Below, in pieces: positions 7,939 to 34,755 of a DNA stretch of 64,000 bases. The notes below the pieces were generated by a model. It did no database searches, had not been told where the DNA came from, and worked only from the letters and a program-made list of their open reading frames with translations. The DNA comes from a virus. The stretch lies in the IMG/VR virus record IMGVR_UViG_3300035158_000384, positions 1 through 64,000 of that record; one strand, given 5' to 3'. Made by a program: the position numbers and the translations under genes. Numbering within the stretch: position 1 is the stretch's first letter; each line of letters opens with the position of its first letter.

Positions 7939-9570
7939 TTATATCTCCACAGCCTCGATCCGACTGAGCCACAACTCTGGACCTTCCTGCGGCTGTGCTT
8001 CCTGCTCGTTTGCCACAGCGCCTCCAAGGACACGCAGAAGGTCATCGCTGAACCCTCCGATGTAATGCACTTCGTTGCCCTTGGCCTGTGTTGTAGTAGT
8101 CGAGCCTGCCAGATTAACGAAATACAATTTCGCATCCGGGCAAAGCCGTCGGTAATCAAGCCACCGCCCCATAATAGGTGTAGTTTCACCTCTTGGATGC
8201 GTAACCCCTGCGTATGAGGCATCCCACATGCCGTACACCTCCATGTCAGACAGCACAATCACCCGATCAGCTTTCTCCCTCTTCTCCACGATGTGGTCAA
8301 GAACCAGATGCGCGTAGGTACAACCGCCGCCATAGGCAGAAAGCCGCTTCTGAAGCGTGAATACCGTATCCCGAGGCTCCAGCTTCTCCGCTCCGTAGGC
8401 AGCATCGAGGTGCAACTGCCCATCAAACGGGAGAACCAACGTGTCCGGGTTCTTCTTGAGAAAGATCGCCCCGAACAGCGCGGCGACATCAACACACTTG
8501 ATCTCCGACGACTGGTTGCGTCGCATCCCGGTAACAGGCGTCCACGTCATTGACCCGGAGACGTCTACCCCCAATATGGTGCGTCCCGAGAACGGCTCCA
8601 TCTCCTCGATCAAACCACCCATCACAGCGTGTAAAGCATCTGACACGGCCCTCGGCAGGTTTTCCCTCGCGAAGAGGTAAGTAGCCAATAAGTGGTGAGG
8701 GAACAACTTCTGCTTGTCGTAATCACTCGGATTCTGGAGGCGCTCCGCCACCGTAGCGCACACCTTGGGCTCCTGCAAAAGACCCTTCCTCGCGAGCACG
8801 TTCAGGTTCATCCGCAACCACGTCCAACTCACAAACTCAAGCATCTGCGCCCAATGGACCGGCTTTTTCAGGTGGTTCTCGATAAGCGCCTTCGGGAGCG
8901 TAGGGAGTTTGTCCGACTCGCCGCGCTTGAACGCCTCGAACTCCTTCACCACCGTCGGAAGTATCTCACGGTTGTAGTCACCCTTGCGGCGGTTCACCAA
9001 GTACCCAAAAAGCGCCTCGTGCTCTGCCGTGGCAGGCTTTGGATGGACCATGCGGATCACGTCCGCCAGCGAAGGGTTCTTGCCCATGCTGTTACGGAAA
9101 ATGGTAGCGGGTTTGCGGTCTGCGAACCATCGCTCCATACACCTCCGAGCCGCATTGCTGAAGCTCTTGCGCCCCAATACACCACTACGAACGACCTGCG
9201 CGAACGTGCGAAGCTGCTTCCCGTTGTCAACCACTCGAGGGAACACCTTCTCAGCGAGTTCCTTGTCGCGGTTGAACAAGTGCGCCAAAAGGACCACAGG
9301 AGCGTCCTTCATCTTAGCCATCTCACGCCCATACACAGCCGCCTTTGCCTCAAAAAGAGCATCGACATTGTCAGCCAAACGCAGGAATGTTGCAAGCTGG
9401 TCCTCGGCGGTGTTGTAGAAGCCGTCTTGGATCGTGAACGTACAGACACCCTGTGCAAGCGCCAGCTTCGGGGTCTGCACAAATGCAATCCCGCCCGCGC
9501 TGTTGCGAGTGTCGGCCTGCGGAGTTGCAGCCCGTAGTGTGTTAAAAATCTTCTTGTTCGCCATGTCCAA
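7939..9570 (-). CDS. rsr: Ro60/Rsr TROVE-domain RNA-binding protein with C-terminal vWA
   Basis: NSAGG N-terminus, DVIRMVHPKP, LRMNLN, MIDAS DVSGSM, GGCT, VLSD; followed by Y RNAs. Confidence 0.92.
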   Translation of the reverse strand: MDMANKKIFNTLRAATPQADTRNSAGGIAFVQTPKLALAQGVCTFTIQDGFYNTAEDQLATFLRLADNVDALFEAKAAVYGREMAKMKDAPVVLLAHLFNRDKELAEKVFPRVVDNGKQLRTFAQVVRSGVLGRKSFSNAARRCMERWFADRKPATIFRNSMGKNPSLADVIRMVHPKPATAEHEALFGYLVNRRKGDYNREILPTVVKEFEAFKRGESDKLPTLPKALIENHLKKPVHWAQMLEFVSWTWLRMNLNVLARKGLLQEPKVCATVAERLQNPSDYDKQKLFPHHLLATYLFARENLPRAVSDALHAVMGGLIEEMEPFSGRTILGVDVSGSMTWTPVTGMRRNQSSEIKCVDVAALFGAIFLKKNPDTLVLPFDGQLHLDAAYGAEKLEPRDTVFTLQKRLSAYGGGCTYAHLVLDHIVEKREKADRVIVLSDMEVYGMWDASYAGVTHPRGETTPIMGRWLDYRRLCPDAKLYFVNLAGSTTTTQAKGNEVHYIGGFSDDLLRVLGGAVANEQEAQPQEGPELWLSRIEAVEI

Positions 9571-28305: not shown

Positions 28306-28425
28306 GGTCCTCGCTCCCTTCTCCGATTTTGGCCCCTGTTTCCGGTTGGAGCCGTTCACCGTATCACTCTGCCTGAAGTATACCACACGCTTGACACAAT
28401 GTCAAGCCCTTTTTCAAAAAAATTT
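28303..28425 (-). repeat. promoter-leader cassette copy A
   Basis: UP tract, TTGACA-17-TATACT, palindromic box, ~70-nt leader and GGAGAAGGGAG RBS; repeated at 28725, 31713 and 41509. Confidence 0.92.
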
Positions 28426-29574: not shown

Positions 29575-30477
29575 TCAAAGTCTGTCGAGGGCTTTCCGGG
29601 TGATCTCGTGTATTTCGCGAAGAGCCTGCTTATCGGCGTCGGAACGTACAATTTCGGCATTGGACAGCTTACCGAAATTGTGCTCCAAACAATTCAGTAG
29701 CAACTCTGTGAGAGCATCCCAATCAGGGCTGTATCGCAGGTCGCTTGTGTCATACAGAGGCTCAAGCGCTTTCATCTTGTCGTCAAAATGATTCTCCAAC
29801 CGTTCAACCGTCCACTCACCCCGGCGAACAGCCTTCATCTCTTCTGCGTTCCGCCCGAGTACAAGATCGCCGGTGGCGAGTATTTGCTCGACCTCGTCAA
29901 GTAGTCTCACAAGGTGATAGCCAAATTTCACGTCAAACCCATGCTTCTCCACCAAAGCTTGCCGCTTACTGTCCTTTTTGGGGTTCTTGGTCTTGATTTT
30001 GTGCAACTGCGAGTAAGCGTAGCCTTTGAACTTGTGCCACGCTCTCTTGGAGAGGAAAAGCTTGCGGTTCTCGCGGACCATGTCCCCGACTGCCGTACTG
30101 TGGAGAACGCAACGCTGTGGAACAAACAGGCTGTCCACCATATTTGGGTTGTTGTCTCCACACAAGGCGAAGTACTTCGCAATGGAGTAGATACAAAAAT
30201 CATACTCCTGACCGGTATCGGGGACGACGACCCCATGTTGCGAATACTGATCGAACGCCTCTTTTGGCTTGTTGTACCCGTAAATGAACCCGTCGGTGTG
30301 CGGGAACACGATCCGCTTTGGGGGGATACAAAATCCGTAGAGGTCCATGTCGCTCGTGTCGTTGGACACATTGTATGCAACCGAACCCATTATGACTTCC
30401 CATTGCGTAGTGTTGGGAAACCACGGCGGCCCGTGTATCAAACCCTGCTTGATCAGTTTATCCACATGGCTGGCCAC
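29575..30477 (-). CDS. Pol-beta-superfamily nucleotidyltransferase (RlaP/YcgL-like)
   Basis: GSVAYN..NDTSDMDLYG, NNPN, FKGYAYSQL, YHLVRL. Confidence 0.85.
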   Translation of the reverse strand: MASHVDKLIKQGLIHGPPWFPNTTQWEVIMGSVAYNVSNDTSDMDLYGFCIPPKRIVFPHTDGFIYGYNKPKEAFDQYSQHGVVVPDTGQEYDFCIYSIAKYFALCGDNNPNMVDSLFVPQRCVLHSTAVGDMVRENRKLFLSKRAWHKFKGYAYSQLHKIKTKNPKKDSKRQALVEKHGFDVKFGYHLVRLLDEVEQILATGDLVLGRNAEEMKAVRRGEWTVERLENHFDDKMKALEPLYDTSDLRYSPDWDALTELLLNCLEHNFGKLSNAEIVRSDADKQALREIHEITRKALDRL

Positions 30478-31715: not shown

Positions 31716-31869
31716 TTGTTGCTCCCTTCTCCGTTATTGGCTCCTGTTTCCGGTTGGAGCCGTTCACCGTATCACTCTGCCCGTATTATACCACATCTTG
31801 ACACAATGTCAAGCCCTTTTTCAAAAAAATTTCCGGGAAGTCGGGGAAACGGCATCGGAAAAGGGTTTT
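31713..31869 (-). repeat. promoter-leader cassette copy C
   Basis: TTGACA-16-TATAAT, same leader. Confidence 0.92.
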
Positions 31870-32425
31870 ACTCGGCCAACAGAGTGCCGGGGTGTATCCA
31901 CCTGTGCAATTCCCCTGCGCGAAGATCATCCAACCACGCCGCCCTGATTGTGGCGGCAGACTGCGTGTTCCACGGTTGCGGGAATATGCACGCCTGTCCA
32001 CCCTTTGCCACAAAAGCTGATACATTGTGCAGAGCGTCATCTATCAGGATGTGATTTGGTGAAGCGAGCAAGTCCTTACGGTTTGTCAACACGTAGTCCC
32101 GAAAAGCGGAACCGAAGCGGTCAAGGAGAAAGCCATGCTTACCAGCAGTACATGCAGGATCGTCAATCGGGGCGGTGCAAAACACTACCTCGTCAAATTG
32201 ATCCTGCAACAACCCGTACATCTCGTCAAACCACGGGTACGTCACAAGGTTACGCCAAAAAGCCTCACCCTCGGCCCTTATTCGACCCCAAAACTCCTCT
32301 GCGGTTACACCGAGACATTCGTGTATTTCCCACCGAGTGACTACCTCCCCGGATGCCCCAAATAAGCGACAAGTGGCCTCCATCATATCAACGCAGACGC
32401 CGTCAAGGTCCAATAAGATTTTCAC
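31868..32425 (-). CDS. HAD 5'(3')-deoxyribonucleotidase (NT5C-like)
   Basis: DLDGV, CTAP, K, LIDD, QPWN. Confidence 0.88.
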   Translation of the reverse strand: MKILLDLDGVCVDMMEATCRLFGASGEVVTRWEIHECLGVTAEEFWGRIRAEGEAFWRNLVTYPWFDEMYGLLQDQFDEVVFCTAPIDDPACTAGKHGFLLDRFGSAFRDYVLTNRKDLLASPNHILIDDALHNVSAFVAKGGQACIFPQPWNTQSAATIRAAWLDDLRAGELHRWIHPGTLLAE

Positions 32426-32729: not shown

Positions 32730-33629
32730 TTACGCTAAAGATTTGGTCATATCGTGTATAACCAGCCTACCAAACCGATCCTCGGTTATACACAAGATGC
32801 CAAAGATAGGTAAAAGCTGTTTGGGAACGTGTTTGTCATGCAACCAATCGTTGGGCAACTTCCAACAGGGGCAACTCACAGCATAGAACGTATGGTTGTT
32901 GCCCACCTTTGTCCACAGCCCTGCGTAGTCGTGGCGATGTGCCCTAACGATTACATGCGGCGCTTCCACACCCCAACGTCCAGCCACTTCCCACGCTACC
33001 TTGGCCTCTTTCTCCAAGGCTCTCAAACCATACTCCCCTGTCCCCATAGAGTGATAAAACTGTATGCGATGCTTGCGCCAATGGATTGTGAGACATTTAT
33101 GTGTGCGCGTTCCTGAGTGTTTCGCTCTCGGAATCTTGAACCGTGCGGCCAGCGTTTCGGAGTATTGCCCTGCACGCCCATCATGTGCAGGCGTACCTCT
33201 GATAATATGAAACGCACGGGCGGCATCTACTATGGGGAAGAAAAGGTCGAAAGCAGAATTGATCTGGTCCATTATCTCGGTGGAAATCAAAAACTCCGGG
33301 TGCTTCTTCCCATCGACGAAGTCACCAACGTGAACCACGTCAAAACAAGCGTTTTGAAGCTTTTTAACCCGTAACACATGAGGCAACCACTCCCACCAAC
33401 AAAAATCCCAAAACTTGTGTAGTTCCAAACCTGTCTTGTGTGGGATATAGGTTGAACCTGATTCCAACTCGGTCTCTGCGGGGTTGATCCCGTGCTTTGC
33501 GCCACAATGAGTATCCGCAACGATAGGTATACCTTTGACTTTGTCGGGGATAGTGATCGTGTGCCTTGACGGTATCGTCAAGTGAGGAAAGTCGTAGTCT
33601 GCGGCTTTTCGCATGAGCACACCTGTCAA
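32730..33629 (-). CDS. calcineurin-like metallophosphoesterase
   Basis: ADTH, GDFVDG, RGTPAHD, H, AHRH. Confidence 0.82.
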   Translation of the reverse strand: MTGVLMRKAADYDFPHLTIPSRHTITIPDKVKGIPIVADTHCGAKHGINPAETELESGSTYIPHKTGLELHKFWDFCWWEWLPHVLRVKKLQNACFDVVHVGDFVDGKKHPEFLISTEIMDQINSAFDLFFPIVDAARAFHIIRGTPAHDGRAGQYSETLAARFKIPRAKHSGTRTHKCLTIHWRKHRIQFYHSMGTGEYGLRALEKEAKVAWEVAGRWGVEAPHVIVRAHRHDYAGLWTKVGNNHTFYAVSCPCWKLPNDWLHDKHVPKQLLPIFGILCITEDRFGRLVIHDMTKSLA

Positions 33630-33749
33630 CCGGTTGTCAAACTAACGAACCCATTATACCACAGAATTGGGACTTCGCGTTAATTTCATATGAGTTTTAG
33701 CAGATCGACAGGTTTAGGTATTTTGACGTAACCCTTTGGTGTGCAAACA

Positions 33750-33781
33750 AAAAGAAAAGGCCACCCTCTTCAGGTGGCCTT
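33750..33781 (-). terminator. intrinsic terminator
   Basis: AAAGGCCACC-TGAAGAG-GGTGGCCTTT followed by a T-rich tail. Confidence 0.85.
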
Positions 33782-34031
33782 CCGGGAGTTTCCCGATTAC
33801 GGATGTCACAGAGTGTACCCCCCAACTCTGCGTACACCCGGAGAGTTTTCTCGTGCAAGCGTGGGCAGCTATACCCTCAACTTACCTCACACTTGGAAGG
33901 TTTTCACGGTCGAGGGTCGGTAGCTATACCTCCAACTTTCCGTCCCCTCGGGCAGTTTTATCGGGTTTGACTGCCAACCCTCGGCGCTTCTGGCGTCCCC
34001 GCGCGTCTCCACGCGGTTTTGTTGTGTTGAT
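33750..34031 (-). ncRNA. ~280-nt ncRNA with four tandem H-type pseudoknots
   Basis: bounded by perfect promoter and terminator; units 33784-33839, 33840-33894, 33895-33949 and 33950-33982 with covarying loop-tail pairing. Confidence 0.78.
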
Positions 34032-34037
34032 ACTTGT

Positions 34038-34066
34038 ATTATACCCCACCCGTGACGGAATGTCAA
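34038..34066 (-). promoter_or_regulatory. consensus sigma70 promoter
   Basis: TTGACA-17 nt-TATAAT plus UP tract. Confidence 0.9.
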
Positions 34067-34246
34067 GTGGTTTTTCAAATTTATTTTCCCGACCACCCAG
34101 TAGTGTGGGGGTTTATCCTTGCAGAGCCAACCAGTCAAAAATTGATTTGACCCGCTCAATCCCTGACGTCTTTCCCTTCCTTGTGTATTTTGTGCAATTT
34201 ACACAAACCTTTAAGTACGAACGACTTAAAAGTTTCTTTCGCTGTT

Positions 34247-34262
34247 TGGCACGCCGTTGGCA
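34247..34262 (+). promoter_or_regulatory. candidate sigma54 promoter
   Basis: TGGCACGCCGTTGGCA: GG-N10-GC spacing, one mismatch to TGGCACG-N4-TTGC. Confidence 0.5.
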
Positions 34263-34311
34263 ATAGGTTTTACCGTGCTTTTATCGGGTCAAACAACGAA
34301 GGGAGCTAAAA

Positions 34312-34755
34312 ATGGAACTCGTCAACCTGACACCTCATGCCGTAAACATTGTGGACGACAATGGAAACGCTCTAAAAACCATAGAGCCCTCGGGTAAGGT
34401 CGCCCGAGTGTCCATGTCTCGCGAGGTCGTGGACCACATCAATGGTATCCCCGTGAACCGCGCTGTCACCGGTGAGCCCACCGACCTCCCCGATCCTGTC
34501 AGAGGTACTACGCTCATCGTCTCCCGAATCGTGGCGGAAGCTTGTAAGGTCCGTCATGACCTCGTCGTCCCCGACGAAACCGTCCGCGACGACAAGGGCC
34601 GGATTGTCGGATGCAAGGCGCTCGCCACCGTCTCCGACAGCCGCAACGAGTACTACTACTGCCGGGCCTGCGGGCTTACCACCGAGCACAAGCCTGTCAC
34701 AGGTCGGTGCCTCGAGTGCGGGGAGGACGACAGCTACACAGGCCCGTGCGCGTAA
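34312..34755 (+). CDS. conserved phage protein (NLTPH motif) with C-terminal Zn ribbon
   Basis: GGGAG RBS; VNLTPH, IVSRIVA, RDDKGRIVGC. Confidence 0.75.
   Translation: MELVNLTPHAVNIVDDNGNALKTIEPSGKVARVSMSREVVDHINGIPVNRAVTGEPTDLPDPVRGTTLIVSRIVAEACKVRHDLVVPDETVRDDKGRIVGCKALATVSDSRNEYYYCRACGLTTEHKPVTGRCLECGEDDSYTGPCA

Follow-up and report, generated by a model that had tools for sequence, protein, structure and literature searches.

What is the role of the repetitive, tightly folded RNA encoded near the center of the viral DNA examined here? The stretch analyzed, called the window below, comprises 64,000 nucleotides (positions 1 to 64,000) of IMG/VR virus record IMGVR_UViG_3300035158_000384, and the RNA in question is encoded on its minus strand. 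The complete record is a virus contig of 95,753 bp with a completeness estimate of 47%, and it belongs to a tailed phage, as judged from its tape measure, baseplate and replication genes and its large tRNA cluster. A preliminary description of the window had proposed a non-coding RNA (ncRNA) of tandem pseudoknots that might serve as a decoy or protein sponge directed at toxin-antitoxin (TA) systems of type III. A decoy role is still the most plausible idea, but the TA target is unsupported by any toxin gene, covariance model or repeat detection. Because a ring nuclease gene of the Crn4b type adjoins the RNA, and because a look-alike of a type III-A CRISPR repeat resides within it, we have moved the target of the proposed decoy from type III TA systems to type III-A CRISPR, and the idea of an anti-defense decoy survives in this tentative form. 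The reading that we favor, while granting that it may well be wrong, is that the RNA resembles the phage-borne repeat mimics called Racrs and presents its mimic within a pseudoknot scaffold.

The locus constitutes a gene of its own, whose product is a stand-alone, strongly folded ncRNA of about 280 nucleotides. Its promoter (34038..34090, minus strand) carries an A/T-rich UP-like stretch, a −35 element TTGACA at 34066-34061, a 17-nucleotide spacer and a −10 element TATAAT at 34043-34038, and thereby matches the sigma-70 consensus at 12 of 12 positions. From the position of the −10 element, the RNA should start near 34031. Transcription would end at an intrinsic terminator (33750..33783, minus strand) whose stem-loop (33783-33755) has 12 base pairs and a 5-nucleotide loop and is followed by a run of U nucleotides. 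Both elements are therefore as the preliminary description gave them, and the same is true of the lack of a credible open reading frame (ORF) between them. A plus-strand ORF of 176 amino acids (33736-34266), which had been called as a gene over the whole RNA, is almost certainly a false call; its composition is not protein-like, and a comparison with 5.8 billion proteins yields no homologue, although both flanking genes have a relative.

The minus-strand RNA has a minimum free energy of −121.8 kcal/mol (z = −5.80), and none of 200 shuffled sequences is equally stable. The opposite strand reaches −102.8 kcal/mol (z = −2.92), a difference that would be expected of a minus-strand RNA in which G-U pairs matter. 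A search of 601 nucleotides against Rfam at E values up to 10 returned nothing beyond weak look-alikes of terminator hairpins, with no match to any riboswitch model, and ARAGORN found neither a tRNA nor a transfer-messenger RNA in the region. The element is thus a real, strongly structured phage ncRNA without a family in Rfam, and the search that the preliminary description had called for gives no reason to assign it to a known riboswitch.

In the 5′ to 3′ direction, the RNA is composed of a single-stranded segment, two hairpins, four units that we designate A through D, and the terminator. The 5′ part (33983..34031, minus strand) begins with 15 C/A-rich unpaired nucleotides and continues, in both the minimum free energy and the centroid structures, into hairpin 1 (34016-33999, minus strand; 7 base pairs and a GAGA tetraloop) and the small hairpin 2 (33998-33983, minus strand). 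Unit A (33982-33950, minus strand) is a short H-type pseudoknot of 33 nucleotides with the stem GGGUU/AACCC, wherein the loop GGCAGU pairs with a tail, ACUGCC, located 3′ of the sequence GAUAAA. Unit B (33949-33895, minus strand; 55 nucleotides) forms an interrupted 12-base-pair hairpin with an 8-nucleotide loop in the region UUGGAGGUAU, and its loop sequence GGAGGU pairs with the tail ACCUUC after a 10-nucleotide linker that ends in AAAA. The same architecture recurs in unit C (33894-33840, minus strand; 55 nucleotides; outer stem AAGUGUG/CACGCUU; loop GAGGGU with tail ACUCUC) and in unit D (33839-33784, minus strand; 56 nucleotides; 10-nucleotide loop; outer stem GGGUGU/ACAUCC; loop GGGGGU with tail ACUCCC). 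The unit sizes originally listed, namely 55, 55 and 56 nucleotides plus one short unit, are indeed present. By alignment count, units B and C are 69% identical, and the four modules fold alike and have a few invariant bases in common (UUG..GU in the loop and AAAC..C in the tail) while their stems differ.

The hairpins of this RNA are certain, and the pseudoknots that join each loop to its tail are probable. All loop-tail pairs are standard Watson-Crick or G-U pairs (24 of 24), as is every stem pair, so the pairings first proposed for the loops and outer stems are borne out; unit A achieves 11 standard pairs out of 11 without using G-U. Three positions of the loop-tail helix vary among the units in an informative manner. 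Listed in the order A, B, C and D, position 2 is G-C, G-U, A-U and G-C, and position 4 is A-U, G-C, G-U and G-U, while position 3 is C-G in unit A, A-U in unit B and G-C in units C and D. Each of these positions exhibits at least one compensatory double change between units, and of the 24 permutations by which loops can be assigned to tails, only the cognate assignment yields 12 of 12 pairs at the three positions (manual count). The earlier claim that structure is retained while sequence diverges is therefore correct with regard to the compensatory changes, but it must be read with two limits in mind. The changes are seen among paralogous units only, and the tails of units B through D are unspecific. 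In a matrix of loop-by-tail duplexes, pairing is specific only for unit A, whose cognate duplex has an energy of −10.0 kcal/mol, and off-diagonal combinations appear for units B through D. Shuffled tails likewise reach the observed energy in only 21 of 2000 trials for unit A, compared to 214, 225 and 155 of 2000 for units B, C and D, respectively. The purine-rich loops of B through D can pair with almost any of the pyrimidine-rich tails once G-U pairs are allowed. It is for these two reasons that we grade the pseudoknots below the hairpins.

On steric grounds, the pseudoknots are plausible. Unit A is a classical small H-type knot, and in units B through D a 10-nucleotide linker would have to run alongside a stem of approximately 16 layers, which is tight yet possible. 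The A-run of the units sits where A-minor contacts are usual, a point that we reach by reasoning rather than computation. A loose pseudoknot descriptor proved too permissive to serve as evidence, as it produces chance clusters in AT-rich DNA.

The gene adjacent to the RNA provides one of the two observations that bear on function. A divergent gene on the plus strand (34312..34755) encodes a protein of the Crn4b ring nuclease type in which the N-L-T-P-H and V-R-D motifs are kept. The protein matches the PADLOC family Unk_01 (‘sometimes fused to CARF’) with an E value of 2.7e-31, and Crn4b itself (PDB 9r7b) with an E value of 4.6e-12. A profile built from 26 family members matches the same Crn4b structure at 2.5e-22, with weaker matches to the Crn4a and Crn4 H15A structures. 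In the alignment of the single protein with Crn4b, T-x-H and V-R-D fall opposite the catalytic histidine and arginine. IMG/VR viral contigs contain approximately 230 relatives. An additional C-terminal zinc ribbon is a lineage-specific feature, seen only in the neighbor protein and in its relative P0004 (84% identity). Crn4, a CRISPR-associated ring nuclease, degrades the cyclic oligoadenylates cA3, cA4 and cA6, and the authors of that work proposed that copies of Crn4b on phages and plasmids are anti-CRISPRs (PMC12830947). The neighbor is accordingly a candidate enzyme for countering type III CRISPR or the cyclic-oligonucleotide-based anti-phage signaling system (CBASS).

The second observation is a segment of 36 nucleotides (33936..33971, minus strand) that resembles a solitary type III-A repeat in the sense orientation of a CRISPR RNA (crRNA). 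It runs through the 3′ half and the tail of unit A into unit B, whose 5′ strand it includes, and the stretch at the A/B junction, GGGGACGGAAA, is the 3′ end that type III-A repeats conserve. The region that corresponds to the processing site and 5′ tag of a repeat, GGGG/ACGGAAA, is present, and a cut would be expected between GGGG and ACGGAAAG, near 33944/33943. Repeat sequences were confirmed in published work, namely those of Microcystis DR6 III-A (PMC4428289), Staphylococcus aureus III-A (PMC5687920) and Mycobacterium III-A (PMC4762764). In a local alignment between positions 4-35 of the 36-nucleotide Mycobacterium repeat and the RNA, 29 of 30 aligned bases are identical. The alignment score of 32 was reached by none of 2000 dinucleotide shuffles, and the segment is the top site for this repeat on both strands of the 95.7-kb record, where the next site scores 24 (mean 12.5, standard deviation 2.3). 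The part upstream of the 11-nucleotide seed has, by itself, a p value of about 0.007-0.009. The Microcystis DR6 repeat also matches the segment, over 22 nucleotides. The leader contains what looks like a second tag, GGGGACGCCAGAAG, but this resemblance does not reach significance.

Racrs are solitary mimics of CRISPR repeats that are carried by phages behind a promoter, often beside anti-CRISPR (acr) genes (PMC10651486). The RNA described here resembles them in being small and non-coding, in having a strong promoter upstream, and in combining a repeat look-alike in crRNA sense with a candidate anti-CRISPR neighbor and a record free of recognizable cas genes. These features are among the published marks of Racr candidates; on a further mark, a secondary structure like that of the repeat, the RNA gives a mixed picture. 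The segment lies about 60 nucleotides downstream of the consensus promoter (the mark used for Racrs is a promoter within approximately 250 bp); profiles for RAMP proteins (PF03787) and Cas6 (PF01881) have no match in the 95.7-kb record, which covers about 47% of the genome; and PADLOC detects no Cas protein among the 10 neighboring genes. The resemblance has its bounds as well. A Racr is essentially a repeat plus flanks, whereas this RNA spans 280 nucleotides and includes three additional pseudoknot modules without likeness to a repeat, and its copy of the repeat has three indels and a shortened hairpin. Moreover, the Racrs that have been tested concern types I-C, I-E, I-F and V-A, whereas the would-be target of the phage RNA is type III-A.

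If our preferred reading is correct, the RNA would be made early and in large amounts from its strong promoter, and it would offer the host Cas6 and the tag-holding Csm subunits a false pre-crRNA. The stable, presumably nuclease-resistant modules behind the tag could trap these proteins in dead-end complexes, or they might merely prolong the life of the decoy. The neighboring Crn4b would clear any residual cyclic oligoadenylate signal, such that RNA and ring nuclease together would constitute a two-layer anti-type III locus. The composite version of this proposal, in which a pseudoknot-armored false pre-crRNA jams assembly of the surveillance complex while a zinc-ribbon Crn4b clears the alarm, is in our view rather improbable.

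Several findings weigh against a Racr-like function. The last base of the tag is G in the RNA and C in the real repeat; the segment ends GGGGACGGAAAG, and genuine repeats end GGGGACGGAAAC. The alignment with the Mycobacterium repeat requires three indels (of 3, 2 and 2 nucleotides), and the repeat hairpin is cut to 3 base pairs with a 3-nucleotide loop (−5.5 kcal/mol versus −10.3 kcal/mol for the real repeat). This hairpin competes with pseudoknot A and stem B, and most of the repeat-like bases are paired within those elements in the stable fold. The CRISPR-DR models of Rfam do not match the segment. In addition, neither the leader nor any of the three remaining unit junctions resembles the repeat, and because only one of four modules is repeat-like, mimicry leaves the array of modules unexplained. 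The match itself came from a directed comparison made after the neighboring gene had been seen, and therefore the shuffle statistics are partly post hoc. Finally, the covariation seen in the scaffold is confined to four paralogous units of one RNA.

Repeats at other Crn4b loci of phages lend independent support to the link with type III CRISPR. In a background of approximately 3.0 Mb from unrelated loci that had been collected for different purposes, only two sites score at least 30 with the Mycobacterium repeat, and both are at phage Crn4b loci, which had been included as encoding a Crn4b homologue. One is on a 42,960-bp virus contig (L237/G806) that carries a regular mini-array of type III-A style (L413:1240-1434) with three identical 35-nucleotide repeats and two spacers at a period of 75 nucleotides; its repeats end CCCCGTAAGGGGACGGAAAC, and it is divergent from the Crn4b gene at a distance of about 700 nucleotides. 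The phage RNA has in common with this mini-array the repeat family (…CCCCGNNAGGGGACGGAAAC) and the position divergent from a viral Crn4b gene, but it contains one diverged copy and a structured period of 55 nucleotides rather than identical repeats. The second spacer of the mini-array (1360-1399) is a one-mismatch copy of 737-776, inside a small minus-strand gene 600 nucleotides away, and a crRNA made from it may target the phage itself or its kin, or may be regulatory. The other site belongs to a complete phage of 95.5 kb (L243/G807) with terminal repeats and a GC content of 60%, wherein a shortened repeat at about 2517-2545 retains 20 of 21 bases of the Mycobacterium-type 5′ two-thirds and lies about 470 nucleotides upstream of Crn4b. 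Behind this repeat come a T-run and a promoter-like TTGACA..TATTAT. The signature of the repeat 3′ module had no match in 2.4 Mb of background without Crn4b.

Among sampled genomes, arrays of the repeat family of the look-alike are present in about 25 of 401 from cyanobacteria and in none of 401 from Actinomycetota. The cyanobacterial arrays (G013, G040, G163, G171, G271, G333 and others; L396-L402) consist of 7 to 180 copies of repeats of 35-37 nucleotides. These repeats end CCCCG(C/T)AAGGGGACGGAAAC, and their variable 5′ halves differ from the phage RNA, whereas the 5′ half of the Mycobacterium type matches it.

The strongest competitor to the Racr-like decoy, though we regard it as unlikely, is a multivalent sponge or scaffold for some other RNA-binding protein or nuclease of host or phage, with the likeness to a repeat being either chance or the relic of a crn4b-plus-array module that was captured from a type III locus, and in both cases without a role in function. 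A common fold with fixed bases and differing stems is the pattern that a shape-recognizing protein would select, three of the four modules have no likeness to a repeat, and the repeat-like bases are buried in helices. The phage is also rich in genes for RNA handling (Ro60, RlaP and a phosphoesterase). Sponge RNAs such as CsrB/RsmZ and CrcZ are comparable in that they, too, are stand-alone sets of repeated stem-loop modules with a terminator, a layout suited to protein titration, but the phage RNA has GGA in one loop only, lacks AAnAAnAA motifs and belongs to no Rfam family. Counting against a sponge are the very low probability that the repeat match is due to chance, the two further Crn4b loci whose repeats belong to the family of the look-alike, and the fact that no candidate partner can be named. 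The order of promoter, structured RNA, terminator and operon could instead suggest a cis-acting leader that works through terminator read-through, either as a barrier to 5′-end-dependent RNases in the manner of exoribonuclease-resistant RNAs (xrRNAs) or as a put-like antitermination element for the minus-strand operon. A pseudoknot that joins an apical loop to a 3′ tail is the topology of class 3 xrRNAs from plant viruses (PMC12397905), and the phage RNA further shares with them the short linker spanned by the pseudoknot, the tandem use and a likely high stability, both mechanical and against nucleases. We nevertheless judge this explanation improbable, since the terminator is strong (12 base pairs and a U-run), the next gene lies 120 nucleotides farther on with its own extended −10 element, the pseudoknot tail of unit D and the terminator stem do not overlap, and neither xrRNA nor riboswitch models of Rfam match. 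Class 3 xrRNAs also have a T-loop (L2B) in the apical loop of a P1-P2 stem-loop, with a pseudoknot that forms a ring around the 5′ end, whereas only 2 nucleotides follow the paired loop bases in the phage RNA and leave no room for a T-loop. The phage stems are about twice as long as those of class 3 or coremin-like elements, and no cargo lies behind the array within the transcript. Coremin itself (xrRNA-C; PMC10520033) was rejected, as the RNA contains neither the 3-base-pair YGAD/YGNNAD hairpin nor the GUUAAAC spacer.

Slightly more doubtful still is a crRNA-like guide or degenerate mini-array, in which host Cas6 would cut the RNA at the repeat-like site and the host type III complex, loaded with the portion behind the tag, would act on a different transcript by targeting or regulating it. 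The unit in crRNA sense followed by unique sequence would fit, and so would the true three-repeat array beside Crn4b on the 42,960-bp contig, with its one-mismatch spacer match to a nearby gene; viral crRNA-like regulators are described in a preprint (bioRxiv 10.1101/2024.10.29.618823). However, a second repeat with which processing could be completed is missing, what would serve as the spacer is a stable pseudoknot, no piece of the RNA of at least 14 nucleotides has a second copy elsewhere in the phage record, and activation of type III signaling would harm the phage. The original proposal of an antitoxin mimic (ToxI, CptI or TenpI) that absorbs ToxN-like endoribonucleases now appears very improbable. 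It retains the arrangement of promoter, tandem pseudoknot units and terminator, the logic of a decoy as with pseudo-ToxI, and an A-rich stretch in each unit, given that type III toxins cut A-rich sites (PMC5086642). It can also appeal to tenpI repeats, which differ by up to 35% while keeping their stem and A-stretch (PMC12283969), compared to the 31% by which units B and C differ. But no gene of the ToxN family (PF13958) exists in the 95.7-kb record, in agreement with the preliminary description, which had recognized no ToxN-, CptN- or TenpN-like gene nearby (the downstream gene encodes a phosphoesterase), and nothing in the neighborhood is related to type III TA systems, with no nearby toxin according to PADLOC. 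Rfam models of the ToxI type do not match, nor is there similarity in sequence, and Tandem Repeats Finder, whose output serves, alongside curation, as the criterion that defines type III loci (PMC3401426), reports no 55-nucleotide period or other repeat in the RNA. Units of 55 nucleotides that are 69% alike also contrast with the 36-45 nucleotides of well-studied toxI and cptI repeats, and ToxI is a compact triplex pseudoknot, whereas the phage RNA places a loop-to-tail pseudoknot on a long hairpin.

Least probable of all, in our estimation, is an array of small-molecule aptamers in the style of preQ1-I or SAM-II, perhaps acting as a sponge for cyclic oligoadenylates. Unit A does resemble small pseudoknot aptamers in its 5-base-pair stem, its A-rich linker and its 3′ tail that pairs with the loop. 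The family of the Crn4b neighbor acts on cyclic oligoadenylates (PMC12830947). Nonetheless, no riboswitch model matches even at an E value of 10, the long stems of units B through D are unlike known minimal aptamers, and an expression platform is missing. Binding of cyclic oligoadenylates is not known for any RNA.

Mutation offers phages no easy escape from type III CRISPR systems, and the known counters are mostly proteins that destroy or bind cyclic oligoadenylates. Should the Racr-like reading be true, phages would attack type III systems at two levels, crRNA loading and signaling, and the concept of a Racr would come to include type III systems as well as composite structured RNAs. Under the less probable composite version, the locus would hold the first type III-directed RNA anti-CRISPR with an enzyme that degrades the signal as its partner, and likewise the first in which a structured ‘poison spacer’ is the active part. 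Repeat-like elements that recur beside phage Crn4b genes also provide a simple search rule for finding further loci. Whatever the fate of the decoy model, the RNA is a well-delimited orphan fold of four tandem long-stem H-type pseudoknots in a phage whose RNA biology is unusually rich, with Ro60 and Y RNAs, RlaP, an RNA ligase and many tRNAs.

Searches for relatives of the RNA returned little. A covariance model, R1, was built from units B, C and D (bit scores of 69.8, 64.8 and 57.7, respectively). The model search recommended in the preliminary description found nothing beyond these units, either elsewhere in the phage record or in 80 Crn4b loci, 93 pattern loci, 100 motif loci and Myxococcus phage Mx1. 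No relative emerged when the RNA was compared by blastn with phages, plasmids and Escherichia coli genomes, or when 8 kb around it was searched by megablast. The loop-motif pattern gave only chance-level matches in viral contigs, and the loop-tail-loop pattern gave 9, 44 and 40 chance matches in viral, metagenome and genome collections, respectively. Two other sets of matches were discarded: those to a tandem loop pattern are coding repeats of leucine-rich-repeat proteins, and the 11 exact matches in viral contigs to a 16-mer of the repeat-like part all lie in coding regions. Relatives of the flanking genes are more informative. The downstream phosphoesterase has a single relative, P0002 (74% identity), and for both P0002 and P0004, the relative of the Crn4b neighbor, a 14,255-bp NCBI contig is given as the longest; thus the two are probably on one contig, where both flanks of the RNA would be syntenic. 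The closest cultured relatives of the phage are distant, with protein identities of at most 34-39%.

The promoter of the RNA is one of the phage’s own set of promoters for the host polymerase, because its architecture is shared by six other strong promoters of the phage (28405, 28826, 31812, 41605, 42753 and 5404). Their common elements are the A/T-rich upstream stretch, TTGACA and a −10 region of TGTGGTATAMT, and the promoter of the RNA has the appearance of an early, host-type one. In strong promoters including those at 28405, 28826, 31812 and 41605, a palindrome, TTGACA-N3-TGTCAA, covers the −35 element and is likely an operator. The −35 element of the RNA promoter overlaps a copy, with one mismatch, of the phage’s TTGAC-N5-GTCAA box, and the palindrome there (34052-34066) is degenerate, reading TTGACATTCCGTCAC. 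Therefore, the RNA may escape the regulator that controls the other cassettes.

Downstream of the terminator by 120 nucleotides, and thus outside the RNA, is the gene for a calcineurin-like metallophosphoesterase of a kind common in phages (32730..33614, minus strand) with its own extended −10 element, TGTGGTATAAT. Its protein has no match in Pfam, PHROG or PADLOC, and its AlphaFold model is unusable (pLDDT, a per-residue confidence measure, of 31.6). The assignment derives from viral clusters of calcineurin-like phosphoesterases (Atlas feature score 0.96, structure TM 0.85) and from the motifs DxH, GDxxDG, GTPAHD and RAHRHD in the alignment. Farther along the minus strand are an NT5C 5′-nucleotidase (31868-32425) and the RNA-repair nucleotidyltransferase RlaP (29575-30477; PF10127, E value of 1.7e-14), and a Ro60-like protein is encoded in the tRNA region (7939-9570, minus strand). 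RlaP, NT5C and the phosphoesterase in a row, together with Ro60 and the RNA ligase, suggest an RNA-repair set of the phage. The best cultured match of the Ro60-like protein is from Myxococcus phage Mx1 (E value of 1e-100, with full-length identity of 35.8%), which has no homologue of either the RNA or Crn4b. In a separate, AT-rich viral contig (L180, minus strand, approximately 500-800), we observed five tandem units of about 70 nucleotides, each of which ends in TATAAAAGTTGGGG and is followed by a variable stretch.

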